From Candidatus Hodarchaeota archaeon (lineage in GTDB: Archaea; Asgardarchaeota; Lokiarchaeia; Sigyniarchaeales; SOKP01): 64,000 bases of DNA. Under the pieces are notes generated by a model that searched no databases, was not told the DNA's origin, and saw nothing but the letters and a program-made list of their open reading frames with translations. The DNA lies in NCBI GenBank assembly GCA_048886685.1, contig JBHLKM010000002.1:263532-327531 (forward strand). The letters are read 5' to 3'. This document shows, in pieces, positions 48,256-62,740 of this stretch (the first letter of the stretch is position 1; every line of letters starts with the position of its first letter). The translations under genes and the position numbers were made by a program.

Positions 48256-49506
48256 ATGTCTTCTTACATTAATAATGAAATTAAGTGTAGCATTTGTAAA
48301 TATCAAAACTTAGGTGAAAATATTAAAAATGTAATTTCAATGGCAAATTATTGTTATGCTTGCAATAGATGTGTTAATGTGTGTCCACTTTCGCATTTAG
48401 ATGTATTTTTTCCGCGAACATTAGTAGGAGATTTAGTCCTCTCTTCATTCGGAGAAGTTTTAAATAATCATAATATCTGGGATTGTCTTACATGTGGTCA
48501 ATGTACAATATATTGTCCAATGAGTCAAGAGAATGTAGGAGTAAGAATACCCGAATTAATTTTGGAGTTGAGAAAGGCATCAAGAAATAATAAAATTCAA
48601 ATTAATAGAATACTTGAGAGCCAAACTCATAATGAAATCTTCCCGATAATTTCGAAAATGATGGCAAATAATCCAATAAATCCAAACAAATTAGAGTTTT
48701 TAAAGGAAAAAGGCCTAAAAACAACAGATTCAGGTGATATTGCGTATTTTGTTGGCTGCTTGCCTTTAATGGAAGAAATATTTTATAGCTTTAAAATTAA
48801 TTATAACAACATACCTATAACAATAATAAGTCTACTTAATGAAGCCAATATAGTACCAGTAGTTTTAAATGAAAAATGTTGCGGGCATGATATTTTATGG
48901 GGTGAGGGCGATATTGAAACTTTTAAAAAATTGGCCGAATATAATACTCAGCTTTACAAAGATGCTGAAGTAAAAACTGTTATAGTTGGATGTGCTGAAG
49001 GATATAGAACTTGGAAATATGATTATCCAAAAATAATAGATGGATTTGATTTCAAAGTTTTTCATTTTTCTGAATTTTTTCTAAAAGAGAAAATTCTTGA
49101 CCATTTAAAATTCCCTCGAAATCTCGAGACTAAGGTAACTTATCATGATTCTTGTCGAATGGGCCGTTTAGGCGGAAAATTATATGAAGCCCCAAGAGAA
49201 TTAATTAGACAAATTCCTGGAGTCGAATTAATTGAAATGGATAATATAAAAGATGATTCTAATTGTTGTGGCATCGCAACATTTCTAAATTGTAATGAAT
49301 ATACACGCGTTTTAAGGAAAAATCGTATCAATGAAGCAATTGATACCAGAGCAGAATATTTAATTGTCTCTTGTCCAAAATGTTTAACACATTTTAATTG
49401 TTATCTTAACGACCCTTCCTCAAATGAAGAGAAAAAAGGGTTAAGAAATAAAATAAAGGTGATCGACTTAGCAAGTTTGATTGGTAAATTGCTTCTGCTT
49501 GTTTAA
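48256..49506 (+). CDS. hdrD: HdrD-like Fe-S oxidoreductase (2x[4Fe-4S] plus two CCG domains)
   Basis: CYACNRCVNVCP, CLTCGQCTIYCP, YFVGC, EKCCG, YHDSC, NCCG, SCPKC. Confidence 0.85.
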   Translation: MSSYINNEIKCSICKYQNLGENIKNVISMANYCYACNRCVNVCPLSHLDVFFPRTLVGDLVLSSFGEVLNNHNIWDCLTCGQCTIYCPMSQENVGVRIPELILELRKASRNNKIQINRILESQTHNEIFPIISKMMANNPINPNKLEFLKEKGLKTTDSGDIAYFVGCLPLMEEIFYSFKINYNNIPITIISLLNEANIVPVVLNEKCCGHDILWGEGDIETFKKLAEYNTQLYKDAEVKTVIVGCAEGYRTWKYDYPKIIDGFDFKVFHFSEFFLKEKILDHLKFPRNLETKVTYHDSCRMGRLGGKLYEAPRELIRQIPGVELIEMDNIKDDSNCCGIATFLNCNEYTRVLRKNRINEAIDTRAEYLIVSCPKCLTHFNCYLNDPSSNEEKKGLRNKIKVIDLASLIGKLLLLV

Positions 49507-49562
49507 TTAGAGCTCAAAAATTCAAATTTATCAAATATATTTTATTTTAGGATTATTAAAAA

Positions 49563-52500
49563 ATGTTAAAATTACAGAGTAGTGTTTTAGTTATAGGGGG
49601 TGGAATTGCTGGTATACAGACATCATTAGATCTCACTAGGTTAGGATTCAAAGTTTATCTAGTTGAAATTAAACCTACTATTGGTGGGACTATGGCTCAA
49701 TTAGATAAAATATTTCCTACGCTTGATTGCAGTTTGTGTATTTTAGCTCCCAAAATGGTTGATGTATATAGAAATCCAAATATCGAGTTATTTTCTTATT
49801 CTTACATCAAAAAAATTAGAGGATCTGCTGGAAATTACACAGTAACAGTTATAAAGAAGCCAAGGTACATAAAAGAAGAGATTTGTAAAGGATGTGGAGA
49901 TTGTGTGAATGTTTGTCCAATTAAAGGAATTCCTAGCGAATTTGATACCCATTTAAAAACTCGAGAAGGTATATATATTCCTTTTCCATCATCTGTACCT
50001 CCAGTATATCTTATTGATGACAGAAATTGTTTATTTTTAAATTATCAAATATGTGGAATTTGTGCTAAAGTTTGTAAAGCTAATGCTATAGATTTTTTAC
50101 AAAAATCAGAAGAAATAACTTTGAATGTAGGAGCTATTGTTATTGCCACAGGATATAGCCAAGAAATGCCAGAAAATTATAATACTTTTGCTGGTTATTC
50201 TCCCAATGTTTTGTCTAGTATGCAATTTGAACGTATATTATCCGCAAACGGACCTACTGGTGGTCAAATCATAAAATTAGATGATAGAAAACCTCCTCAT
50301 TCAATTGCTTTTATACAATGTGTAGGTTCTCGGGATGTTCATCATCCTGCATGTAAAAAATATTGCTCTGCAATATGTTGTATGAATTCAGCTAAAGAAG
50401 CAATTGTGGTTAAGGAACATGATCTAAATATTGAATGCTATATTATTAATACAGAAATAAGAGCAAAAGGTAAGAATTTTTATGAATTTATTGAAAGATG
50501 TAAGAGTGAATATAATGTTAAATATATTAATGGTCGTGTTTCATATATCAAAGAGGATTTAGATAATGGGAAATTAAAATTATACTATGAAGATATTGAC
50601 AAAGGAACAGTTGGAACTTTTAAAGTGGATATGGCAATATTAGCTAGTGCTTTATCCCCAACTCCTTCTTACTATAAACTTTTAAGACAATTTAACGTAG
50701 GTTGTAATGATTTAGGATATATTCGTGAAAAAGATATAATCTTACTTGAAAAAAAGAATGTATTTGTAACTGGTTATTCTAGAAAACCAAATGATATTCA
50801 AATGGCAGTTGCTGAAGGTTCTGCATGTGCTGCTAAAATTAGTGAAAAATTATGTTCTGTTAGATTTCAAAATATAAAAAAAATAAGTTATCCTTCAGAA
50901 ATACCACTAACACCCGAGGATGACCCACGTGTAGGTATTTTTATTTGTCGATGTGGTACTAATATTGGGGGAATTGTTAATGTTCCTGAAGTAGTAAATT
51001 ATGTTTCTAAATTGCCTTATGTTGTTCATGTTGAAGAAAATATGTATTCATGTAGCTCTGATTCCCAAGAACGAATTAAAGAATTAATTATAAAATATAA
51101 TCTTAATAAATTTATAGTTGCTTCATGTACTCCTCGAACTCATGAACAACTTTTTAAGAATACTTTAAGAGAGGCTGGATTAAATCCATTTTTATTTGAA
51201 TTAGTCAATATAAGAAATCAAGATTCTTGGGTTCATCAAAATGAACCTGAAAAGGCAACCAAAAAAGCATGTGATTTAATTAGGATGTATTTAGGAAAGG
51301 TAATTAATTCAAAACCATTAGAAACTATTAATGTTAAAGTTGAAAAATCATCTCTAATAATCGGTGGTGGAATAACAGGAATAACTGCTGCACATAATTT
51401 AGCAAACCAAGGATTTGAAGTTTATCTCGTAGAAAAGGATTCTTTACTTGGGGGTGTTGCACTCGAATTTATAGATTTATATTATATACCTATTACGAAA
51501 AATGAAATTTTACAAAAAATTAATGATTTGAGAAATAATTCTGATGTTCATATTATATTAAACTCAGATATAGTTGATATTCAAGGTTATGTTGGTAATT
51601 ATCAGATTAAAGTTAAGAATATTCAAGATAATTCAGAAGATAAAACATTTAAAGTGGGGACAATAATAGTAGCCACGGGAACCAGGCAAATAAGGACAAA
51701 TAGATGGTTAGATTTATCAGAAAGATATCCCAAACGTGTATTAACCCAAAAAGAATTAACTGCGATTAAAGATGCAGATATTCCTAGATTTAAAGATGCT
51801 ACAATAATACTATGTGTAGATCAAAGAAGAAACGAATTTAATGAAGGAGATAATATAAAAACCTATTGTTCAAATATTTGTTGTGGCGTAGCATTAAAGA
51901 ATATCGAAAAATTATTAAATAACAACCCTAATGCTCATATTCATGTTTTATATAGAGAATTTCAATTTTCAGATTTAAATGCTGAACACTTGTGGCGAAG
52001 CCTTCGACAAAAGGTTACATATGAAAAATATCGTTCAATCGATAATATCAAAATCATTGAGGAAAACGGTAGATTTCATATAAAATACAAAAACATTGGC
52101 GCTAGAACAGATATAGAATATAATACAGATTTAATAATATTAGCAACCCCAAAAGTCCCTGCTGATGGAACTGAACAATTAGCAAAATTGTTAAAAGTTC
52201 CAACAAATAAAGATGGCTTTTTTTTAGAAGCTGATGCAAAACTTAGGCCAATTGACTTTGCAACGGAAGGAATTTTCTTATGTGGGGGAGCTCATTGGCC
52301 AAAATGGATTGGTGAAAGCATTACTCAAGCATATGGTGCAGCTGGCAGAGCAACGATATTAATGGTTAAAGGAGAAATAGAAGCTGAATGTATAACAGCC
52401 GGAATCAATGAGGAAAAGTGCATTGGATGCGGTAGATGTGCCGAAATTTGCATTTATAATGCCATCGAATTGTATGACACTATTAAACAAATGGGTTTAT

Positions 52501-52673
52501 ACACTACTAATATAAAGAAAGCACGAGTAATTAAAGCTGTTTGTAAAGGTTGTGGAGCATGTGTTGTAGAATGTCCAGTTAATGCTATTGATCAAAATCA
52601 CTTTAGCAAGATTCAAATTAATAATATGATTGATTTATTACCAGGAATAGAATTACCGCATTATATTATTTAA
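49563..52673 (+). CDS. hdrA: Large two-module HdrA, all-Cys
   Basis: GGGIAG, FPTLDCSLCILAP, QCVGSR, CSAICC, CRCGTNIG, second GGGITG, C-terminal ferredoxin motifs. Confidence 0.95.
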   Translation: MLKLQSSVLVIGGGIAGIQTSLDLTRLGFKVYLVEIKPTIGGTMAQLDKIFPTLDCSLCILAPKMVDVYRNPNIELFSYSYIKKIRGSAGNYTVTVIKKPRYIKEEICKGCGDCVNVCPIKGIPSEFDTHLKTREGIYIPFPSSVPPVYLIDDRNCLFLNYQICGICAKVCKANAIDFLQKSEEITLNVGAIVIATGYSQEMPENYNTFAGYSPNVLSSMQFERILSANGPTGGQIIKLDDRKPPHSIAFIQCVGSRDVHHPACKKYCSAICCMNSAKEAIVVKEHDLNIECYIINTEIRAKGKNFYEFIERCKSEYNVKYINGRVSYIKEDLDNGKLKLYYEDIDKGTVGTFKVDMAILASALSPTPSYYKLLRQFNVGCNDLGYIREKDIILLEKKNVFVTGYSRKPNDIQMAVAEGSACAAKISEKLCSVRFQNIKKISYPSEIPLTPEDDPRVGIFICRCGTNIGGIVNVPEVVNYVSKLPYVVHVEENMYSCSSDSQERIKELIIKYNLNKFIVASCTPRTHEQLFKNTLREAGLNPFLFELVNIRNQDSWVHQNEPEKATKKACDLIRMYLGKVINSKPLETINVKVEKSSLIIGGGITGITAAHNLANQGFEVYLVEKDSLLGGVALEFIDLYYIPITKNEILQKINDLRNNSDVHIILNSDIVDIQGYVGNYQIKVKNIQDNSEDKTFKVGTIIVATGTRQIRTNRWLDLSERYPKRVLTQKELTAIKDADIPRFKDATIILCVDQRRNEFNEGDNIKTYCSNICCGVALKNIEKLLNNNPNAHIHVLYREFQFSDLNAEHLWRSLRQKVTYEKYRSIDNIKIIEENGRFHIKYKNIGARTDIEYNTDLIILATPKVPADGTEQLAKLLKVPTNKDGFFLEADAKLRPIDFATEGIFLCGGAHWPKWIGESITQAYGAAGRATILMVKGEIEAECITAGINEEKCIGCGRCAEICIYNAIELYDTIKQMGLYTTNIKKARVIKAVCKGCGACVVECPVNAIDQNHFSKIQINNMIDLLPGIELPHYII

Positions 52674-52690
52674 ATAAAGGTGAGTACAGC

Positions 52691-53155
52691 TTGTTAAAAA
52701 CTAAAAAAAAAATAGTTAAGGAATTTGAGCCAACTATTTTAGTTTTTTGTTGTAACTGGTGTAGTTATGCTGGAGCGGATTTAGCAGGAGTGTCAAGATT
52801 TCAATACCCCCCAAACATTAGGATTGTCAGAATTATGTGTTCAAGCAGAGTTGAGCCTATATTTATTTTAAGAGCTTTTGACAATGGAATAGATGGTGTA
52901 TTAATTATTGGATGTCATAAGGGTGATTGTCATTATATACATGGATTTGAATATACTCTAATCAGAATGGAACATTTAAAGAATTTATTAAAAATAATTG
53001 GAATTGAGGAAGGTAGATTTAGGTTACACTCAATTTCAGCAAGTGAGGGGAAACAATTTTCAGAATTAATTATAGAATTTACAGATAAAATTAAAGAGTT
53101 AGGGGAATTAAAAATCCCCAAAAAATTTGGACTAATGGAATTTAAATGTAATTAA
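52691..53155 (+). CDS. mvhD: MvhD, all-Cys form
   Basis: FCCNWCSYAGADLAG, IMCSSRV, GCHKGDCHY. Confidence 0.95.
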   Translation: MLKTKKKIVKEFEPTILVFCCNWCSYAGADLAGVSRFQYPPNIRIVRIMCSSRVEPIFILRAFDNGIDGVLIIGCHKGDCHYIHGFEYTLIRMEHLKNLLKIIGIEEGRFRLHSISASEGKQFSELIIEFTDKIKELGELKIPKKFGLMEFKCN

Positions 53156-53163
53156 ATAAAAAT

Positions 53164-54291
53164 TTGAGGATATATATGACAGAATTAAACTCAAAAAAAT
53201 ATTTCGATATTAACATAAAAACTTTTAAAGACCTTGATAATGAAGTTATTAAAACTGATAAATGTTGTAGTTGTGGTGCATGTATAGCTTATTGTGAAAG
53301 TCAGAATTTTAATGTTATTGAGATGGCGGGATATATTCCGAGATTTAAATCAGAAAAAAATGCCTATAATTGTACTGAATGTGGTATCTGCTATTATATA
53401 TGTCCTCAAACATTATCATTATTAAAAGAATTAGAAGATATTCACAGAATAGAAGATAAACTTGGGCATATTATTAAAATTCTCGCAGCTAAAACATCTA
53501 ACGCTACGCTAAAGAAAGTTGGGCAAGATGGGGGTATAGTTTCAACAATATTAACCTATTTATTTGATAAACATAAAATTGATGCCGCCATTGTTTCCGA
53601 ATTTGATAAAAACCTTAAACCAATTCCAAAAATTATATTTGATAAAGAAGATCTGTTGAATTCGGCAGGTACACGTTATTCCATATCTTCTCAAATTATT
53701 CCTTTAAAGGATTTATATCATATTTCAGAAGAAATTCTTATGAAAAAAAGAATCTTTGATATCGATCAACTCCGTATGGGATTCGTAGGAACACCATGTC
53801 AATGTAGAGCAATTAGTAAAATGCAATTTTTACATGTTAAACCAGCTCATATTATAAAATATGTAATAAGTCTTTTTTGTTTTGAAAATTTTGATTATAA
53901 TAAATTATATGATATTTTAAGAAAAGAAACAAATTTAGACCCCAATAATATTAAAAAAGCATGGATAAAGAAGAATTTTTTTATTGCTACTAAGAACAAT
54001 GAGGAATTCGAAGTAAATATTAAAATCCTAAATCCTGCTGTAAGAAAACATTGCCTTGAATGTAATGAATTTACTGGTCGATTTTCAGATATTAGCATTG
54101 GATCATCTGGTGCACCAAAAGAATATTCAATGATAATAACTAGAACAGAAGAGGGGCAGAAAATCATTAAATCCATGCTTTCTTATGGATTAATTGAACA
54201 ATTTATTGCACCAGCTAGCCAAAATGGGGAATGGATAAATAAAAAACTTGAATGGTATAAAAAATTAATTTCTCTTAAGGCAAATAATTAA
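53164..54291 (+). CDS. frhB: FrhB/FdhB-family F420-binding subunit
   Basis: CCSCGACIAYC, GQDGGIVSTIL, AGTRY, GTPCQ, LFCFENF, DISIGSSG. Confidence 0.9.
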   Translation: MRIYMTELNSKKYFDINIKTFKDLDNEVIKTDKCCSCGACIAYCESQNFNVIEMAGYIPRFKSEKNAYNCTECGICYYICPQTLSLLKELEDIHRIEDKLGHIIKILAAKTSNATLKKVGQDGGIVSTILTYLFDKHKIDAAIVSEFDKNLKPIPKIIFDKEDLLNSAGTRYSISSQIIPLKDLYHISEEILMKKRIFDIDQLRMGFVGTPCQCRAISKMQFLHVKPAHIIKYVISLFCFENFDYNKLYDILRKETNLDPNNIKKAWIKKNFFIATKNNEEFEVNIKILNPAVRKHCLECNEFTGRFSDISIGSSGAPKEYSMIITRTEEGQKIIKSMLSYGLIEQFIAPASQNGEWINKKLEWYKKLISLKANN

Positions 54292-54357
54292 GATTTCCTT
54301 TGAAATTTAATATAAAGAATTTCAATAATTTAGAAAAAATTAAAGTTTTTGTTTATT

Positions 54358-54428
54358 TCTGAAAACCCACACTATGGGTTAGTTCCCCCTCAACTATAGT
54401 TTTTTTGAAAGGATCATCCTTTTTCAGA
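54358..54428 (-). promoter_or_regulatory. Candidate eukaryote-type SECIS element of the Sec-hdrA mRNA
   Basis: Minus strand: UCUGAAAA-AGG-AUGA-UCCUUUCAA-AAAAACUAUAG-UUGAGGGG-GA-ACUAA-CCCAUAGUGUGGG-UUUUCAGA. This gives an 8-bp basal helix, an AUGA/GA core, an upper helix with one bulge, an A-rich apical loop and a side hairpin. Folded by eye. Confidence 0.55.
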
Positions 54429-56465
54429 TAATATTTTATGAGGAGCTAGTGCTTCAATCTTTTTCCAAATAAGTTCAATAGATTCGATATACTGTTCCTT
54501 ATATTCAAGTTCAGTACTACAGATTCCTTTCATTTCTTCAATAATTTGTTTGTCTCTATAATATTTGAGATCAATTGCACGAGCTGGACATGAAGATACA
54601 CAAACCCCGCAACCTTTACACTTTAAATCATCTACTTCCGCAATATCTTCTCCATTGACTGTGATTGCTTTATTAACACAGAGCTTCTCACATCTATGAC
54701 AACCCATGCACAGATTTTCATCTATTTCAGCAATAATTAATTCTTGAATTATTGAATCTTTAGAAATTAATGTTGAAACCTTACTTGCAGCGGCTAACGC
54801 TGTTGATACTGAATAAGGGATATTTTTGGGTCCGGCGGCACATCCACATATATAAATGCCCATATTATTTGTCTCTTGAGGTTTTAAGCATCCATGAACT
54901 TCTGTCAAAAATCCGTTCATATCTTTACTTAAACCCAAAATCTCAATTATTTCAGCTGTGCCTTTAGAAGGGACCATGCCTGTTGATAAAACAACTAAAT
55001 CGGTATTCATTATAATGAAATCATTTGTTAAAGTTGAAGCAGCAGTAATCCTAATCTTTTTTGTTGCAGGATCTTCTCGTATATCTCCCACTTTTCCCCG
55101 AATCATCATTATGCCTGCTTCTCTCGCTTTTCTATAATATTCCTCATTTCCTTTATCCCATGCCCGTATATCTATATAAAAAATAGTAATCTCCATATTA
55201 GGATATTCTTGTTTTAACAATTGAGCATTTTTAAGAGCAACACTGCAGCATACTACTGAACAATATGGATTACCTTTTAAAGTTCTTGAACCAACACATT
55301 GAATCATAGCTACTGTTTTAGGGATCTTTCCATCAGAAATCCTATATATATGACCTCCTGTAGGTCCAACTGGACTTAACATTCGTTCTAACTCTATTTG
55401 TGTAATTACATTGGGATAAATCCCATATTTATATTCATTATTTTTCATAATTGGGTATTCATCCCATCCTGTGGCAATAATTACTGCTCCAACTTTTAAT
55501 GTAATATCTTTTGGGGTTTGTTCAAATTCAATAGCTTCAGCGGGGCAAATTCTTTGACAATTTTTACATTCTATTCATACACTCCTATCAATTAGAGCTA
55601 CTTTTGGTACTGATTGGGGAAAAGGTATGTAAATTGCTTTTCGTTCGCCAATACCTCTGTTAAATTCGTTAGGTACTTCTATTGGTCATTTCGTTGTACA
55701 TAATTCACAACCAGTACACTTGTTTTCATTAATATATCGAGGTTTTTTATGTATTTTAACATTATAATTTCCAGGTATGCCGCTGAATTTACTAATTTCG
55801 CTATAGGTAAATAATGTTATATTTGGATGTTTTGAGACACTTACCATAATAGGTGCTAGAACTCATATCGCACAATCATCAGTGGGATAAATTCGATCTA
55901 ATTTTGCCATTTTTCCACCAATAGTGGCTTCTTTTTCGACTAAATACACATTTATTCCTTGATTTGCTAAATCTAATGCAGCATTCATCCCTGCAATACC
56001 AGCGCCGATAATTAATACAGATTTTTCTACTGATACTCTTTTATTAGGTATGATTTCTAATTCTCTAGCACGATTTATCCCTGCTTGCACTAACCTTATA
56101 GCTTTTTCAGTAATTCTTTTCTTATTTCCCGAGTGAGCAAATGAGCATTGTTCGCGAAGATTAACCATTTGGAAATAATATGGGTTTAAACCCGCTTCAG
56201 CTAGCACTGCTCGATAAGTAGATTCATGAATTTTAGGTGTACAAGCTGCCACAACAACACGATTTAAGTCTAAATCTAAAATATCGTTTTTGATAATATT
56301 TTGTCCTGGATTGCTGCAAGTAAAATTGTTCACTCTAGCAACAATAATACCAGGGAGTGCCTCAACATAATCTCTAATAAGCTCGCAATCGATACTGTTA
56401 CTAATATTAACTCCTCATCTACAGATATAGAATCCAATTCTAACATTGGTCTGTTTTTCAGACAT
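54414..56465 (-). CDS. hdrA: Selenocysteine-containing HdrA, 683 aa, four in-frame UGA (codons 17, 201, 260, 297)
   Basis: Single frame from ATG 56465 (SD AAGGT) with no TAA/TAG. TGA at 56417 (ICR-U-GVNI), 55865 (DDCAI-U-VLAP), 55688 ([12 protein letters not shown]) and 55577 ([12 protein letters not shown]); each aligns to Cys in the in-window HdrA paralogues. Confidence 0.92.
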
Positions 56466-56905: not shown

Positions 56906-58063
56906 ATGAAAATAAAAAACTTTCAGGATTTAATTAAAGAGGTTCATGAGCCTGGCATCTGTCAACAATGTGGGGGCTGCATAAGTTTTTGTAATTCAAT
57001 TGAAAATGAAGTAATTGGTTTTAAAGATCTAAATTCGCCTCCTGAATATTTAAATAAGGAAAAATGTCTTGAATGTGGAATTTGCTATTTAATTTGTCCA
57101 CAAACGCATACTCTAGACGAAGATCTTAATATTACATACAAATTTTCAGGCTTTTCGTCAATGCCATTAGGTTTTCTTGAAAATGTTTACTCTTGTCAGG
57201 CTGTGGATAATGATTTTCTAAAATATGGAACAGACGGTGGGGTTGTAAACTCAATAATAAATTATTTAATAGAAAAAAGAATAATTGATGGCGCAATAGT
57301 TGCAAAAACAAAATCACCATTCTCTAGAGAAGCTATAATAGCTAAAAGTAAAGAAGATTTAATCAAAGCTTCTGGTGTCAAGTTAGATATATCAGCACAA
57401 TTAGATAGCGTCCAGAAATTTCATACATATACAAATTCATTACCTAAATTAAGGAGTGTCAAATTCAAGAAATTAGCACTGGTAGGGACCCCATGTCAAA
57501 TTTATACAATTAGATGTATGCAAAATTTAGGCATCATTCCATCAGAGAATATAGAAATTTGTTTAGGATTATTTTGTTTCGAGAATTTCTTCTTTGACGA
57601 AATAAAAGTTAGGCAATTCGAAGAAGAATTTAATATTAAATTTAAAGATATTGAAAAAATAAACATTAAGGCAGATCTAATTATTAAATTAAAAGATGAA
57701 GTAGCTCGTCGCAAAATAATCCATATACCATTTGAAAGATTAACTGAATACATCCGTCCAGCTTGCACCGTGTGTAATGATTTCACGAATATTTATGCCG
57801 ATGTTTCTTTTGGGGGATTGGGTTCCCCGGATAAATTTACGACTGTAATTATTCGTACTAAAAAAGGAAAAGATATAATTAATATGGCGATAAAAGCAGA
57901 TGTAATTAAACGTTTAAAATTAAATGTAATTGACAAAAAAGAAATGAAAGAAAAAATTACACAATTCTCTCAATTAAAATTAATACGAGCAGAAAAAAAT
58001 ATGAGAGATATTTTGATAACAAGGAGATCCTCATTATCAACCTCAGCAATTAATGAAGAATAA
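56906..58063 (+). CDS. frhB: FrhB/FdhB-family F420-binding subunit
   Basis: CQQCGGCISFC, GTDGGVVNSII, GTPCQ, GLFCFENF, ADVSFGGLG. Confidence 0.9.
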   Translation: MKIKNFQDLIKEVHEPGICQQCGGCISFCNSIENEVIGFKDLNSPPEYLNKEKCLECGICYLICPQTHTLDEDLNITYKFSGFSSMPLGFLENVYSCQAVDNDFLKYGTDGGVVNSIINYLIEKRIIDGAIVAKTKSPFSREAIIAKSKEDLIKASGVKLDISAQLDSVQKFHTYTNSLPKLRSVKFKKLALVGTPCQIYTIRCMQNLGIIPSENIEICLGLFCFENFFFDEIKVRQFEEEFNIKFKDIEKINIKADLIIKLKDEVARRKIIHIPFERLTEYIRPACTVCNDFTNIYADVSFGGLGSPDKFTTVIIRTKKGKDIINMAIKADVIKRLKLNVIDKKEMKEKITQFSQLKLIRAEKNMRDILITRRSSLSTSAINEE

Positions 58064-58132
58064 TTATTAAATCCCATATTAGAATAATTAATTTATTTAT
58101 CTGAAATTGGGAAAAAAGAGGTAGACTAAATT

Positions 58133-60682
58133 ATGGATATATACACAATATTATCTCATCCATTCAGAAGAAAAATCTTATTTCTTCTTGAAAAGGAGGG
58201 CTATATTCCCTATACAGATTTAATGGAAAAACTTGGTTTAGAAACAACAGGACAACTAAATTTTCATCTGAAGAAGATCGGTTCATTAATAAATAAAGAC
58301 AAAAAATCATATTTTCTTACTGAAGATGGTAAACGCGTACTTAAAATTCTCAATCTCAACAAAAGAATTTTATCAGGAGAAAATATTGATGAGTATTTAG
58401 ACTCTAGGGGAAGCGAGATAAGCAGGATTGGAGTAATCATTTGTTATTGCAATACAGAAATTTCAAAGGTAATAAATATAACTGCCCTTGAAAATTATAT
58501 AAATAAGTTAAGAAAGGTAGTTTCGGTAAAGGTCTTTGAAAACTTATGTCAGCAAAAAAATTTTAATAGAATTGGTAAATGGGTTAAAGATAATTTTTTG
58601 AATAAAATTGTGATAGCTGCATGTTCTCCAAGAACACATCAACATCTTTTTGAACGAATTTTTGAGAAAACTATTGATCGAGCTAATTTAGAAATAGCTA
58701 ATATTAGGGAACAATGTTGTTGGGTCCATCAATCTAAAATATATCAAACAGATCTCTCATTTTTATTAGAAAAAACTAAATTATTAATTGAAGCAGCTGT
58801 TGAACGGGTAAGTCTTCAAAAAAAAGTAAAAATTAAGAGAGTTGAAGTAGAAAAGAGTTGTGCAATTTTAGGTGGGGGAATTGCTGGTATAACACTTGCC
58901 TTAAATTTAGCTCGAGCTGGAATTGAAGTATATCTCATTGAAAAATCACCTACCTTGGGAGGTAAGGTAGCCAGATGGCACCGAATCCATAATATGGGTG
59001 ATTGTTCAATATGTCTCATTTCAGAATTGATAGGTGAATTAGTAAATGAGAAAAAAATAAAGATTTATACTAATACTGAAATTGAAAATGTATCAGGTGA
59101 AGTTGGAAATTTCACAATTAAATTGATTAAAAAACCTCGATATATTAATGTGAAAAAATGTACTGGATGTAAACAATGTTTAGAAGTTTGTAGTATAGAA
59201 AAGACAAATCAATATGAATTTGGTTTAACTAATCGAAAAATCATATATATCCCTTTTATTCATTCGTATCCCTATGTTCCTTTGATTGATGAAGAAGATA
59301 TAAAAAATTGTCTTAATTGTAGAATTTGTGAACGTGTATGTGAAAATAAAGCAATAGATTTGACTCAAAAAGAAGAAAAAATCGAAATCAAAGTTGGAAC
59401 TAAAGTAATTGCGATTGGTTCTGACTTTTACGAGGATTTAGAGGATTATCATTATAATTCCAAAAAAAATATAATAACATCAATGGAATTTGAACGAATA
59501 TTATCTTCTGATGGCATCACTGAAGGAAAGCTTTTAACGTTATCAGATAAAAAACCAATAGAATCAATTTCTATCATTCAAGAGGTTGGTCCATCAAAAT
59601 ATCTTGCTGATTACTCAGAAATCTTAGCACAAAAATATATTGAGGATATTAAAATAAAAAATCCTGATTGCGAAGTTAATGTCTTTTATGATTTAAGTAA
59701 ATTAAAAGATAAGGATGAGATTTTATTAAGATCATCTAATCCAAGATTTATATATGCAGACAAAATTACAATTGAGACCAATAAAGATCTAAATTACATT
59801 GTTGCTGATAATATTAAGTTTCCAAGTGATTTAATTGTATTAAATCTAAAATTTATCCCTAATAAAGATTTAAAAAACCTTCGAAAATATATGGATTTTA
59901 CATTAGATGATAATGGATTTATGAGTGAGGAAACATTAGCATCTGGAATTTATGGTGTTGGGACGATTTTTGGTCCATTAAATTATAATTCTACAATTTC
60001 AACAGCTAACAATACTGCATTAAAAATTATTTCATTGCTTTCTAAAGAATATTTAATTGCAGAGTTTACAGGGATAGAAATTGATGAAAATAAATGTGGT
60101 TTGTGTGGTTTGTGTTCTAAAATTTGTCCTTATAATGCTATTACAACAGAATCAGACAAAATAAGTATAGACAAATTTAAGTGTAAAGGCTGTGGTACAT
60201 GCGCTAGTGTGTGTCCAACAAATGCAATAGATTTAAACTTAGACTCTTCTGAGAAGATTTTAAAGACAATTGAAATTTTTTCGAAATTCAGAGCACAACC
60301 AAAAATTCTTGCCTTCTGTTGCGCATCTTGCGGATATGCTGCAGCTGATGATGCTGGTCTTAAGAAGGTCTCCTATAATCCAAATACTTTTATCGTTCGG
60401 GTTCCATGTACAGGACGTATTGATACAAATTTTATTATTAAATCATTTGAGCTCGGATTCGATGGAGTAATGATAATTGGCTGTAGACAAGATGCATGCA
60501 GATATATTGACGGAATAGAAAAAGTAAAGAAAAAAATTATGTTATTAAAGAATATCATACTGCCGAAATATAAAGATCGAATAGTCCTTGAACATTTAAA
60601 TGCTGTAGAGGGTACCAAATTTGCTGAAATCTCAAATAAATTATATAACAAATTAGTCGAGGAGATTAAATTTGAAACCTAG
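58133..60682 (+). CDS. Fusion: ArsR-like winged HTH, HdrA-like flavoprotein and MvhD
   Basis: ILSHPFRRKIL...TTGQLNFHLKKI...YFLTEDG; ACSPRTH, NIREQCCWVH, GGGIAG, DCSIC, four ferredoxin motifs; QCVGSR/CSxxCC replaced by QEVGPSK; C-terminal FCCASCGYAAADDAG, PCTGR, GCRQDACRY. Confidence 0.88.
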   Translation: MDIYTILSHPFRRKILFLLEKEGYIPYTDLMEKLGLETTGQLNFHLKKIGSLINKDKKSYFLTEDGKRVLKILNLNKRILSGENIDEYLDSRGSEISRIGVIICYCNTEISKVINITALENYINKLRKVVSVKVFENLCQQKNFNRIGKWVKDNFLNKIVIAACSPRTHQHLFERIFEKTIDRANLEIANIREQCCWVHQSKIYQTDLSFLLEKTKLLIEAAVERVSLQKKVKIKRVEVEKSCAILGGGIAGITLALNLARAGIEVYLIEKSPTLGGKVARWHRIHNMGDCSICLISELIGELVNEKKIKIYTNTEIENVSGEVGNFTIKLIKKPRYINVKKCTGCKQCLEVCSIEKTNQYEFGLTNRKIIYIPFIHSYPYVPLIDEEDIKNCLNCRICERVCENKAIDLTQKEEKIEIKVGTKVIAIGSDFYEDLEDYHYNSKKNIITSMEFERILSSDGITEGKLLTLSDKKPIESISIIQEVGPSKYLADYSEILAQKYIEDIKIKNPDCEVNVFYDLSKLKDKDEILLRSSNPRFIYADKITIETNKDLNYIVADNIKFPSDLIVLNLKFIPNKDLKNLRKYMDFTLDDNGFMSEETLASGIYGVGTIFGPLNYNSTISTANNTALKIISLLSKEYLIAEFTGIEIDENKCGLCGLCSKICPYNAITTESDKISIDKFKCKGCGTCASVCPTNAIDLNLDSSEKILKTIEIFSKFRAQPKILAFCCASCGYAAADDAGLKKVSYNPNTFIVRVPCTGRIDTNFIIKSFELGFDGVMIIGCRQDACRYIDGIEKVKKKIMLLKNIILPKYKDRIVLEHLNAVEGTKFAEISNKLYNKLVEEIKFET

Positions 60683-61430
60683 ATTTATAATAATTTCTCT
60701 AACTTCGTGTAGTGGTTGCATCTCAACTATTATGTCTTTAGATATTTTTCCACAATTCCTTAAGAGAACTATAATAACTTATTTTCCCTTTATTTCAGAT
60801 TTAAAAGACATTGAAGAATGTGATATTGCTTTAGTAGAAGGTTGTATTTCTGAAGAATCTCAAATTATATTCCTTCGAGAAGTTAGAAGATATGCCAAAA
60901 AAGTCTATGCCTTAGGAACATGTTCTAGTTTTGGAGGGATTTTAAGTCTTTCAAATTCAAAAATAGTAGGACCAATCTCTAATTATATTGAGATTGAGGG
61001 TATTATTCCTGGTTGCCCACCTCCTTCTAAACTACTTGGAAACAGTCTAATCAGATTGGTTGAAAACAAAGATATAATATTATCTGAAAAAAATATGTGT
61101 GCCAATTGCCCATCAAGGGGAAACATGGAAATAAATTCTCATATAAATATCTCTAAGATTAATCCAGATCCAGAAGAGATTGATCTTAATAAGGAAAATT
61201 CTGAATGTTTTTTAAAGAAAGGTATTTTATGTTTAGGACCAGTAACCCGTGATGGATGTGAATTTAATTGTATAAAAATGGGGCTTCCGTGTGAGGGATG
61301 TATAGGGCCGGTATCAAAAGATTTCACTTCAAACATTATTAATTTTTTGAGTTTGATAGAATTATCTCAGGAGCTAAAAGAATATACAGGGATTTTTTAT
61401 CGATTTTCAAAACCAAAATTGAAAGGGTGA
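60672..61430 (+). CDS. mvhG: Group 3 (Mvh-type) [NiFe] hydrogenase small subunit
   Basis: SCSGC, VEG, GTCSSFGGI, PGCPP, CFLKKGILCLGPVT, PCEGCIGP. Confidence 0.88.
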   Translation: MKPRFIIISLTSCSGCISTIMSLDIFPQFLKRTIITYFPFISDLKDIEECDIALVEGCISEESQIIFLREVRRYAKKVYALGTCSSFGGILSLSNSKIVGPISNYIEIEGIIPGCPPPSKLLGNSLIRLVENKDIILSEKNMCANCPSRGNMEINSHINISKINPDPEEIDLNKENSECFLKKGILCLGPVTRDGCEFNCIKMGLPCEGCIGPVSKDFTSNIINFLSLIELSQELKEYTGIFYRFSKPKLKG

Positions 61431-62740
61431 AAACTTTGTTAAAAGTTATTGATGTTTGTAGACGTGTTGAAGGTCATGGAGATGTAAAAATTTTAATTCA
61501 AAATGATGAAATTTCATTGGTGAATTTTGAATTTGGAATATATCGAGAATTTGAAAAAATTTTAATCGGAAAAAGACTACTAGATCTGCCAAAAATAGTA
61601 TCTCGAATATGTGGATTATGTTATACCTCTCAAACAATCGCAAGTTGTAAAGCAATAGAAGATATTTATAATATCAATGTATTAGAACAAACTATTCTCT
61701 TGAGACGCCTTTTAATGAGTGCTGAATTAATTAAATCCCACTCTATGAATTTTTTTTTCCAAACTTTACCCGATCTTTTAGCAATTTTTGGTCTTAGCAA
61801 AATAACATTTTCTCCTTACGAGATAATTAATTATAATCCTCAATTAACAAATAATTTCTATGAATTAATCAGAATTGGAAATGAACTAAATAACTTATAT
61901 GGAGGTAGATCTGTCCATTTGATTTCGCCTATTCCAGGAGGCATTATTTATTCTCCTTCTCGAAAAAAAAATATCTTAGCTCGAAAATGTTTTCAAAAAG
62001 CTTTAGTCAGTTTAGAATGGATTATAGAAAAATTTATTGAATTATTTTCTAATCAAGCTCCTCCAAAAGAATATAACCTTCCAAACTTTATTTCTCTTGG
62101 TTTAACAAACCATGGAAATTATGATCGATATTTAGGTACCTTAAGAATTAAAGGAAACAATAAAAACTTAATAGAATTTGAAAAACACAATTACTCTTCT
62201 TATTTTGGAAAAGAGCTTAATTTACGTGGAATTGATTTTTATTTCGAAAATAAAAAAAATGTAATAGTAGGTCCTTTTTCTCGTTATAATATTGTCGAAA
62301 ATTATGGATTTGATGAATTTAATACTTATATTGAGTATTTCAATAAATCATGGAAAAACAATATACTACTTACAAATTTTATTAAATTACTAGAAATGTA
62401 TATCGAATCTTATCAAGGATTACAAATTTTAGATGATTCATCTTTAACTAAAAGAGAAAAACTTCCTTCTCTGAATTCAGTAAAAAATTTGGATGGAATA
62501 GGCGTCATTGAGGCTCCCAGAGGAGTTTTAATCCATCATTATCACCTTAATAAAAGTAATTATGTTGATCGAGTAAATCTTTTCGTTGCTACTGAGTTTA
62601 ATATTTCACTTATTAACGAGATGATTACAGAATATGCCCAAGAATTATTTGAAAGAACAGGAGATATAAATTTAGTTAAAAAGAAAATTCAGATGATTAT
62701 TAGGACATTTGACCCTTGTATCTCATGTGCAACTCACTAA
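61427..62740 (+). CDS. mvhA: Group 3 (Mvh-type) [NiFe] hydrogenase large subunit without C-terminal extension
   Basis: RVEGHG, L1 SRICGLC, EAPRG, L2 DPCISCATH followed immediately by TAA. Confidence 0.88.
   Translation: MKTLLKVIDVCRRVEGHGDVKILIQNDEISLVNFEFGIYREFEKILIGKRLLDLPKIVSRICGLCYTSQTIASCKAIEDIYNINVLEQTILLRRLLMSAELIKSHSMNFFFQTLPDLLAIFGLSKITFSPYEIINYNPQLTNNFYELIRIGNELNNLYGGRSVHLISPIPGGIIYSPSRKKNILARKCFQKALVSLEWIIEKFIELFSNQAPPKEYNLPNFISLGLTNHGNYDRYLGTLRIKGNNKNLIEFEKHNYSSYFGKELNLRGIDFYFENKKNVIVGPFSRYNIVENYGFDEFNTYIEYFNKSWKNNILLTNFIKLLEMYIESYQGLQILDDSSLTKREKLPSLNSVKNLDGIGVIEAPRGVLIHHYHLNKSNYVDRVNLFVATEFNISLINEMITEYAQELFERTGDINLVKKKIQMIIRTFDPCISCATH

Follow-up and report, generated by a model that had tools for sequence, protein, structure and literature searches.

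A monocistronic HdrA gene with four in-frame UGA codons and its own SECIS element in a Lokiarchaeia-type genome

Introduction

The locus considered here lies at positions 54414-56465 (-) of a 64,000-nucleotide stretch of contig JBHLKM010000002.1 (positions 263,532 to 327,531; hereafter the window, to whose numbering all unprefixed positions refer). It encodes HdrA, which in complexes of the heterodisulfide-reductase type is the subunit responsible for flavin-based electron bifurcation; the genome is assigned to the Promethearchaeota (Lokiarchaeia). Four TGA codons interrupt the frame, and the question is whether they mark a decaying gene or are read as selenocysteine (Sec), and what the two that fall in an inserted ferredoxin domain signify. 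A prediction made earlier from the sequence of the window (the original prediction) held that the gene is read through at all four codons and that two of the Sec residues share one [4Fe-4S] cluster; the results below lend that reading partial support. The locus is a genuine, intact multi-Sec HdrA gene, and its two sites in the inserted domain are probably recent and near-neutral.

HdrA proteins with several Sec residues have been described before. In Lokiarchaeota up to four Sec occur at five possible positions, all at conserved cysteines (Cys) and always including the canonical one; four of these positions are not part of any classical cluster motif, the fifth belongs to the last C-terminal motif, and a single selenocysteine insertion sequence (SECIS) serves HdrA Sec sites over ~2 kb (Mariotti et al. 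2016, PMC4989117).

Reading frame and identity of the gene

With TGA translated as Sec, the locus consists of a single frame of 683 codons, beginning with ATG and followed by a terminal TGA, in which there are no frameshifts and no TAA or TAG codons. This bears out the claim that two open reading frame (ORF) fragments and the DNA around them form one frame broken only by four TGAs. ORF calling with translation table 11 splits the gene into 55863..56333 and 54414..55448, and because gene callers fragment it in this way, inventories of Asgard HdrA are too low. The bases at all four in-frame TGAs were confirmed by eye.

The translation contains the full set of HdrA motifs, namely the N-terminal CxC...C...C, the GxGxxG of the flavin adenine dinucleotide (FAD) site, TDDCxxC/U, the inserted 2x[4Fe-4S], CVGSR...YCSxxCC and the C-terminal 2x[4Fe-4S], and shows matches to Pyr_redox_2 and Fer4 families of Pfam. 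Residues 8-650 align with solved HdrA structures (E-value=1.2e-216 for 9sfi_A and 2.9e-204 for 5odc_A). Codon 201 stands opposite the Sec, written 'X', at residue 197 of PDB entry 9sfi_A, and codons 17, 260 and 297 stand opposite Cys in solved HdrA. All four are also opposite conserved Cys (or Sec) in the HdrA paralogues of the same genome. The motifs quoted in the original prediction are exact, and its statement that HdrA of Methanococcales and Methanopyrus has Sec at the canonical DCxxU site agrees with the sequences, which read DDCAMX.

In the coding sequence (CDS) of the nearest orthologue 330 single-base changes would create a stop codon, and since 30 of these sit on Cys codons, the chance that two random nonsense changes would both strike Cys is small (p ~0.008). 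The view that random decay is an unlikely origin of the TGAs thus holds. A genome-wide reassignment of TGA was ruled out: the codon is an ordinary stop and terminates 11 of the 40 long ORFs of the window.

Sec-decoding machinery

The genome (4.4 Mb, 31% G+C) contains every component of Sec decoding for which the original prediction had proposed a search. A tRNA-Sec with anticodon TCA (63 bits; cut-off 47) is adjoined by the gene for SepSecS (483 bits). Two SelD genes are present, each with one in-frame TGA. PSTK is represented by a full-length PSTK-like kinase (137 bits), which has selen_PSTK as its best match and scores under the NCBIfam equivalog cut-off. Some 4 kb from the tRNA-Sec lies an EF-Tu-like GTPase identified as aSelB/EFSec, the best matches of which are selB (238 bits) and the Pfam family aSelB_III; the former score is under the NCBIfam equivalog cut-off, yet is the best full-length match, and the latter exceeds its cut-off.

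SECIS element

A SECIS element (Table 1) begins within the 3' end of the HdrA gene, and the stop codon itself forms part of its AUGA core. In an alignment with 14 orthologues 94.9% of the cells are consistent with the proposed pairing, a figure that drops to 62.5% or less once the pairing partners are shifted against each other by a column, and six pairs have changed on both sides. The element has the features of a lokiSECIS, a eukaryote-like type of SECIS, with the order AUGA / UCCUUUCAA / AAAAACUAUAG / UUGAGGGGG / AA close to the stop codon. The published geometry comprises an AUGA core, a 9-bp stem, an 11-nt loop with leading As and a 3' GA or AA (PMC4989117; for AUGA_AA, PMC11227280), and the AUGA_AA variant of the core is known from Lokiarchaeial hdrA/frhD (PMC11227280). 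Compensatory changes among the orthologues were also seen in both the lower helix and the side hairpin, in a three-helix layout.

A loose regular-expression scan of the genome for SECIS elements was dropped as noisy, since it returned 57 matches against 36 in a reversed-genome control, and a covariance model of the core was used instead. This model retrieved a homologous element downstream of VhuD at each of the Sec-HdrA paralogues B, C and F (below), together with two more elements in the same genome that are described in the last section.

Table 1. Coordinates of the HdrA gene, its in-frame TGA codons and the SECIS element in the window
Feature	Position	Strand	Description or basis
HdrA CDS	54414..56465	-	N-terminal Fe-S, FAD/thioredoxin-reductase, inserted 2x[4Fe-4S] ferredoxin and C-terminal 2x[4Fe-4S] ferredoxin domains
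TGA codon 17	56415..56417	-	C-R-U-G-V-N-I, N-terminal domain; aligned with Cys13 of solved HdrA
TGA codon 201	55863..55865	-	D-C-A-I-U; canonical HdrA Sec site, equal to residue 197 of methanogen HdrA
TGA codon 260	55686..55688	-	ferredoxin motif 1, fourth ligand (C250-x2-C253-x2-C256-x3-U260-P); specific to this genome
TGA codon 297	55575..55577	-	ferredoxin motif 2, first ligand (U297-x2-C300-x2-C303-x3-C307-P); specific to this genome
Inserted ferredoxin domain, residues ~240-315	55521..55748	-	alignment to solved HdrA; Fer4_17/Fer4_15 matches at 249-315
SECIS	54358..54428	-	fold and orthologue conservation; AUGA core includes stop codon
SECIS helix I (lower; CUGAAAA/UUUUCAG)	54422-54428 with 54358-54364	-	5' strand within CDS
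SECIS AUGA core	54414-54417	-	supplied by last codons GGA UGA; core UGA is the HdrA stop codon
SECIS helix II, 9 bp, UCCUUUCAA/UUGAGGGGG	54405-54413 with 54385-54393	-	fold
SECIS apical loop, 11 nt, A-rich, AAAAACUAUAG	54394-54404	-	fold
SECIS core 3' AA	54383-54384	-	fold
SECIS side hairpin	54365-54379	-	3' side, between core and lower helix

Distribution of the Sec sites among relatives

The gene was compared with 14 orthologues from the same genus (79-87% identity) and, more widely, within a set of 81 related HdrA genes made up of the studied gene and 80 named Promethearchaeota loci. The metagenome-assembled genomes (MAGs) holding these relatives are named Promethearchaeota or Promethearchaeia, that is, Lokiarchaeia-type Asgard archaea. 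Codons 17 and 201 are TGA in all 14 orthologues, and codons 260 and 297 are TGT or TGC in all 14. Within the larger set TGA occupies site 201 in every gene (81/81), site 17 in 79, site 75 in 31, site 50 in 24 and site 407 in two. Sites 256, 260, 297 and 303 are each TGA in one gene of the 81, as is site 112, a variable position that is not otherwise Cys, and at both 260 and 297 the other 80 genes have Cys. To judge from this distribution, Sec17 and Sec201 are old, fixed sites, and Sec260 and Sec297 probably represent a recent, near-neutral change.

Among the matches listed from 51 other species of the genus, none showed an inserted domain with two TGAs, and one (G215; locus L100, G215:C40) has Sec in motif 1 in place of its third Cys (256). 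Isolated Sec residues were also observed at other Fe-S ligands, namely at 303 (L173), at 407 in the YCSxxCC motif (L117 and L122) and in the first C-terminal ferredoxin motif, where the fourth Cys is replaced (G189; locus L101, G189:C1). The TGA at site 112 belongs to a locus (L129) on a complete chromosome.

The genome contains 194 CxxCxxCxxxCP-like motifs, and only the two of the studied gene have an in-frame TGA in a coding context. A DNA scan of 398 genomes across the phylum covered the pattern C-x2-C-x2-C-x3-U-P; 83 matches were listed, 50 of them were inspected in frame, and a reversed-pattern control gave clearly fewer. The coding-looking cases among the 50 were the studied gene, the C-terminal motif of the G189 HdrA and a ferredoxin-like ORF of G141, the others being off-frame noise. 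The last of these three (L078; G141:C74:27456-27490, -), from an Asgard genome that is only distantly related, is short and resembles a 2x[4Fe-4S] ferredoxin. In its motif 2 (CVNCNACVHRUP) a TGA takes the place of the final Cys; ten further codons follow this TGA, which could be either Sec or a natural stop.

In a file of Asgard HdrA sequences published in 2024 (PMC11227280), the strings CRXGVNI and DCAIXVL occur 91 and 10 times. A literal search of the same file, which would miss motifs with other neighbouring residues, found neither X-Pro nor XIEC, XIDC or XVEC in ferredoxin motifs, and by literal search the closest orthologues of the studied gene in it read TTKCP and SVCIEC. The original prediction had left open whether the pattern was already catalogued: multi-Sec HdrA as such was published in 2016 (PMC4989117), and the sites at 260 and 297 were absent from all the other genomes covered here.

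Paralogues, VhuD and the stop codon

At least seven other full-length HdrA paralogues occur in the genome, and at least five full-length paralogues contain Sec. In the numbering of the studied gene (Sec at 17, 201, 260 and 297), Sec is found at 17 and 201 in paralogues B and D, at 17, 50 and 201 in F, and at 17, 50, 75 and 201 in C. Each of these four is followed by a VhuD gene with two Sec codons. A lokiSECIS-like element lies behind VhuD for B, C and F; for D, the regular-expression scan and the covariance model returned none at that place.

Lokiarchaeota HdrA has been described as 'always' followed by VhuD, sharing the SECIS of the latter and ending in UAA or UAG (PMC4989117). The studied locus lacks this tandem with a shared SECIS: there is no VhuD downstream, and the neighbour is a convergent FrhB-like gene. 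With paralogue B (G000:C6:216640-218643) and the orthologues of the latter the gene has 73% identity; the SECIS sequences are homologous, and Sec17 and Sec201 are present in both. Paralogue B, however, has Cys at 260 and 297, a two-Sec VhuD next to it and its SECIS behind VhuD. In view of the missing VhuD and the SECIS homology with B, the studied gene looks like a copy that lost VhuD, by which the SECIS was brought to its own stop codon.

The stop codon has itself shifted. In 13 of the 14 orthologues (loci L034-L047) the frame stops at a TAA five codons earlier, the corresponding region of the window being 54417-54434 (-). This TAA was lost (UAA to UUA) in the studied gene and, independently, in G010 (L047), with the result that the frame gains five codons and stops with the UGA that forms part of the SECIS core.

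Selection and read support

Pairwise dN/dS (the ratio of nonsynonymous to synonymous substitution rates) against four orthologues stayed within 0.09-0.5 for all segments delimited by the TGAs; codons 298-683 gave 0.09-0.15. Changes on the terminal branch were counted by taking the majority of the three nearest orthologues as the ancestor. The approximate ratios of nonsynonymous to synonymous changes per site (pN/pS) were 0.23 for codons 1-200, 0.22 for 202-259, 0.36 for 261-296 and 0.20 for 298-683. The values are low in all segments and selection is therefore not relaxed behind any TGA; relaxation downstream of codon 17 had been named as a possible refutation of the original prediction. The gene is under purifying selection.

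Contigs assembled separately from four runs of one sediment metagenome study match the region with no mismatches. The TGAs at codons 260 and 297 are both covered by contigs of X1, X2 and X3 at ~18-45x; the contig of X4 covers codon 260 only, at 2.3x. The TGAs are hence present in the per-run assemblies, another point on which the original prediction had asked for confirmation.

Iron-sulfur clusters and the low-potential branch

Electrons on the low-potential path leave FAD for HA3, a mobile cluster of the N-terminal domain that acts as a 'shuttle', and pass by way of HA5 and HA6 in the inserted ferredoxin domain to ferredoxin or polyferredoxin (PMC6019823, PMC12350162). The partner protomer contributes Cys197 as one of the ligands of HA3 (PMC9012536). 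A cryo-electron microscopy study of 2026 placed Sec197 in a Cys-Sec link between the N-terminal cluster and FAD (PMC13518236), and the role of this residue is debated. By alignment, Sec17 and Sec201 would lie on or beside HA3 and Sec260 and Sec297 in the HA5/HA6 domain, which would place all four Sec on the ferredoxin-reducing branch.

The combination of Sec at 17, 50, 75 and 201 was found in 23 of the 81 related genes, and also in G000:C2:239221-241143(+); here three of the four Cys of the N-terminal domain are Sec, as is the canonical site. If HA3 is held by three N-terminal ligands and residue 201' of the partner (PMC9012536), the N-terminal cluster of this type would have at least three selenolate ligands. 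No paper was found stating that an N-terminal HdrA cluster has three or more selenolates. Since this type implies several Sec on the N-terminal cluster, the idea of a multi-selenolate cluster is not unique to the studied gene.

Origin of Sec260 and Sec297

The explanation that we consider probable is a functional monocistronic HdrA selenoprotein with four Sec, in which the new sites are near-neutral. One lokiSECIS, together with tRNA-Sec and aSelB/EFSec, would direct Sec insertion at four UGAs 1.16-2.0 kb upstream, as the original prediction had it in proposing readthrough at four Sec codons, and the machinery, the SECIS covariation and the alignment of the sites support this. Sec260 and Sec297 would have arisen by single-base TGY-to-TGA changes on the terminal branch of this genome, by which a cluster of the inserted domain would acquire two Sec and two Cys ligands. 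The most likely cause is a permissive 'Sec creep', whereby a 3' SECIS would recode distant UGAs, any Cys codon would be one step from Sec, and Fe-S ligands would tolerate the replacement; we consider a tuned function less probable. Drift is favoured because the pair is a singleton, because relatives show isolated replacements of Cys by Sec at further ligands and because TGY to TGA is one conservative step.

Several points weigh against this explanation. Sec incorporation at the UGAs is a prediction, and the near-neutrality of Sec260 and Sec297 is something we infer. An Rfam scan of 54250-54520 up to E = 10 gave chance-level matches only, none of them to a SECIS family (e.g. SECIS_1); from its sequence, the element would appear to behave as a SECIS while standing outside the curated families. 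The terminal branch is long (0.13 substitutions per site) and, if the TGAs are very recent, low pN/pS downstream of them would precede visible decay. Eight positions that are otherwise invariant are changed in this genome alone, and four of these replacements (G254E, C260U, A285S and C297U) fall in the 76-residue inserted domain, a clustering that could hint at directed remodelling over drift. The support from the four runs rules out random error but is non-independent confirmation, since all four come from one study and two are possibly the source of the assembly. 

In clostridial 2x[4Fe-4S] ferredoxins Cys IV, V, VI and VII bind cluster 2, and the other four, I to III with VIII, bind cluster 1. 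Following this rule, U260 (IV) and U297 (V) would ligate one predicted cluster with C300 and C303, and C250, C253, C256 and C307 would hold the other.

That both changes would fall on ligands of one cluster is the chief attraction of the alternative put forward in the original prediction, adaptive retuning, according to which Sec260 and Sec297 were selected jointly as a di-selenolate [4Fe-4S] centre that alters the potential or kinetics of the ferredoxin-reducing branch. The predicted location of all four Sec on that branch, the concentration of genome-specific replacements in the inserted domain, with G254E inside motif 1, and the persistence of purifying selection on the gene also speak for it. 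The case, which is built from sequence, is weakened by the distribution of the pattern, a singleton absent from the 14 orthologues, from the matches listed for 51 other species of the genus and from the 80 named loci. Given two Cys-to-Sec changes among ~30 Cys, moreover, the second would strike the same cluster by chance in ~3/29 (~10%) of cases, and the isolated Sec of relatives at 256, 303, 407, the C-terminal motif and the non-Cys site 112 are what drift predicts. The claim that a di-selenolate cluster could retune bifurcation therefore does not hold up well, and we regard joint selection as unlikely. We are equally doubtful of its extended form, in which Sec17 and Sec201 with the di-Sec cluster would make up an almost wholly selenium-lined low-potential wire selected for potential or electron-transfer rate.

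Were UGA260 and UGA297 poorly decoded, the gene could be an incipient pseudogene or crippled allele, its product mostly truncated after residue 259 and its function covered by the other full-length paralogues of the genome. The long terminal branch and the loss of the usual TAA stop, with extension of the frame into the SECIS, would fit such a history. This is nonetheless improbable: the 683 codons are free of frameshifts and of TAA or TAG, pN/pS downstream of 297 equals that upstream, the SECIS is intact with its pairing kept, random nonsense changes would rarely both have struck Cys codons, and a SECIS of the same type reportedly serves up to six UGAs over ~2 kb (PMC4989117). False TGAs at codons 260 and 297, produced by sequencing or assembly, might be suspected in a MAG with an estimated contamination of 8.4%, where co-occurring relatives have TGY at both codons. 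Contigs that match without mismatch in every run, with both TGAs in three of them and codon 260 in the fourth, and the improbability of two errors each making TGA at a Cys codon leave this hardly credible.

Comparison with known systems

Like the multi-Sec HdrA of Lokiarchaeota (PMC4989117, PMC11227280), the studied protein is predicted to have four Sec at conserved Cys, with a lokiSECIS that would act over ~2 kb. Unlike the published members, it has Sec codons in the inserted ferredoxin motifs, no VhuD, a SECIS of its own and a UGA stop codon in the SECIS core. Sites 260 and 297 are not among the positions reported in 2016, because those are either outside the motifs or in the last C-terminal motif. 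Multi-Sec HdrA being already known, the new features are the Sec pattern of the inserted motifs, the possession of a separate SECIS at a locus without VhuD and a stop UGA that belongs to the SECIS core. Two generalisations published for Lokiarchaeota, that HdrA is always accompanied by VhuD and that it never ends in UGA, fail for this orthologue group.

The VhuD-associated HdrA of Methanococcales and Methanopyrus (PDB 9sfi, the M. maripaludis super-assembly; PMC13518236) has the same domain architecture, aligns 1:1 over 643 residues and has its Sec197 at the position of residue 201; it differs in having a single Sec, a SECIS of the euryarchaeal type and a methanogenic context. The inserted domain resembles a clostridial-type 2x[4Fe-4S] ferredoxin in its two CxxCxxCxxxCP motifs, and departs from it in the predicted Sec at positions IV and V. 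The literature consulted yielded no natural ferredoxin motif in which two of the ligands are Sec.

Should translation proceed as predicted, the protein would provide a natural classical ferredoxin-type [4Fe-4S] cluster with two selenolate ligands, and the 14 orthologues, which at 260 and 297 differ from it only by Cys, would serve as built-in Cys/Sec controls for the effect of selenium on a low-potential cluster. The scattered one-off Sec residues (256, 260, 297, 303, 407, the C-terminal motif and one non-Cys position) suggest that Cys and Sec interchange freely at Fe-S ligands given a 3' SECIS that acts at a distance; such interchange would be a simple route to growth of the selenoproteome. 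Adaptive tuning is unproven.

Neighbouring genes and further SECIS elements

The transcription unit of the Sec-HdrA gene contains neither hdrBC nor mvhD. On the opposite strand it is flanked by operons which hold genes for HdrD-like, fused HdrA, MvhD, FrhB-like and [NiFe] hydrogenase proteins. The operon at 48256-54291 (+) specifies HdrD-like, MvhD and FrhB-like proteins and a 1036-aa fused double HdrA. That at 56906-62740 (+) specifies an FrhB-like protein, an 849-aa DUF7347-HdrA-MvhD fusion and the small and large subunits of a [NiFe] hydrogenase, which are all-Cys and end in ..DPCISCATH.

The two additional elements found by the covariance model of the SECIS core lie behind unannotated UGA-containing ORFs. 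One of them (G000:C14:111693-111733(-); 34.5 bits), with a perfect 9-bp stem and GA, is situated directly behind a 167-aa ORF (G000:C14:111736-112239(-); locus L187:1547-2047:-). This ORF has two adjacent in-frame TGAs (..VVHADUUADVM..) and matches no Pfam family, and is a candidate for a new selenoprotein with a Sec-Sec dyad. The other element (G000:C2:362246-362286(-); 43.9 bits) lies 16 nt behind a 75-aa ORF (G000:C2:362302-362529(-); locus L186:1560-1784:-), which specifies a predicted membrane protein without a Pfam family. A single in-frame TGA falls in the sequence GGGUVCA, and the product is likewise a candidate selenoprotein, of small size.

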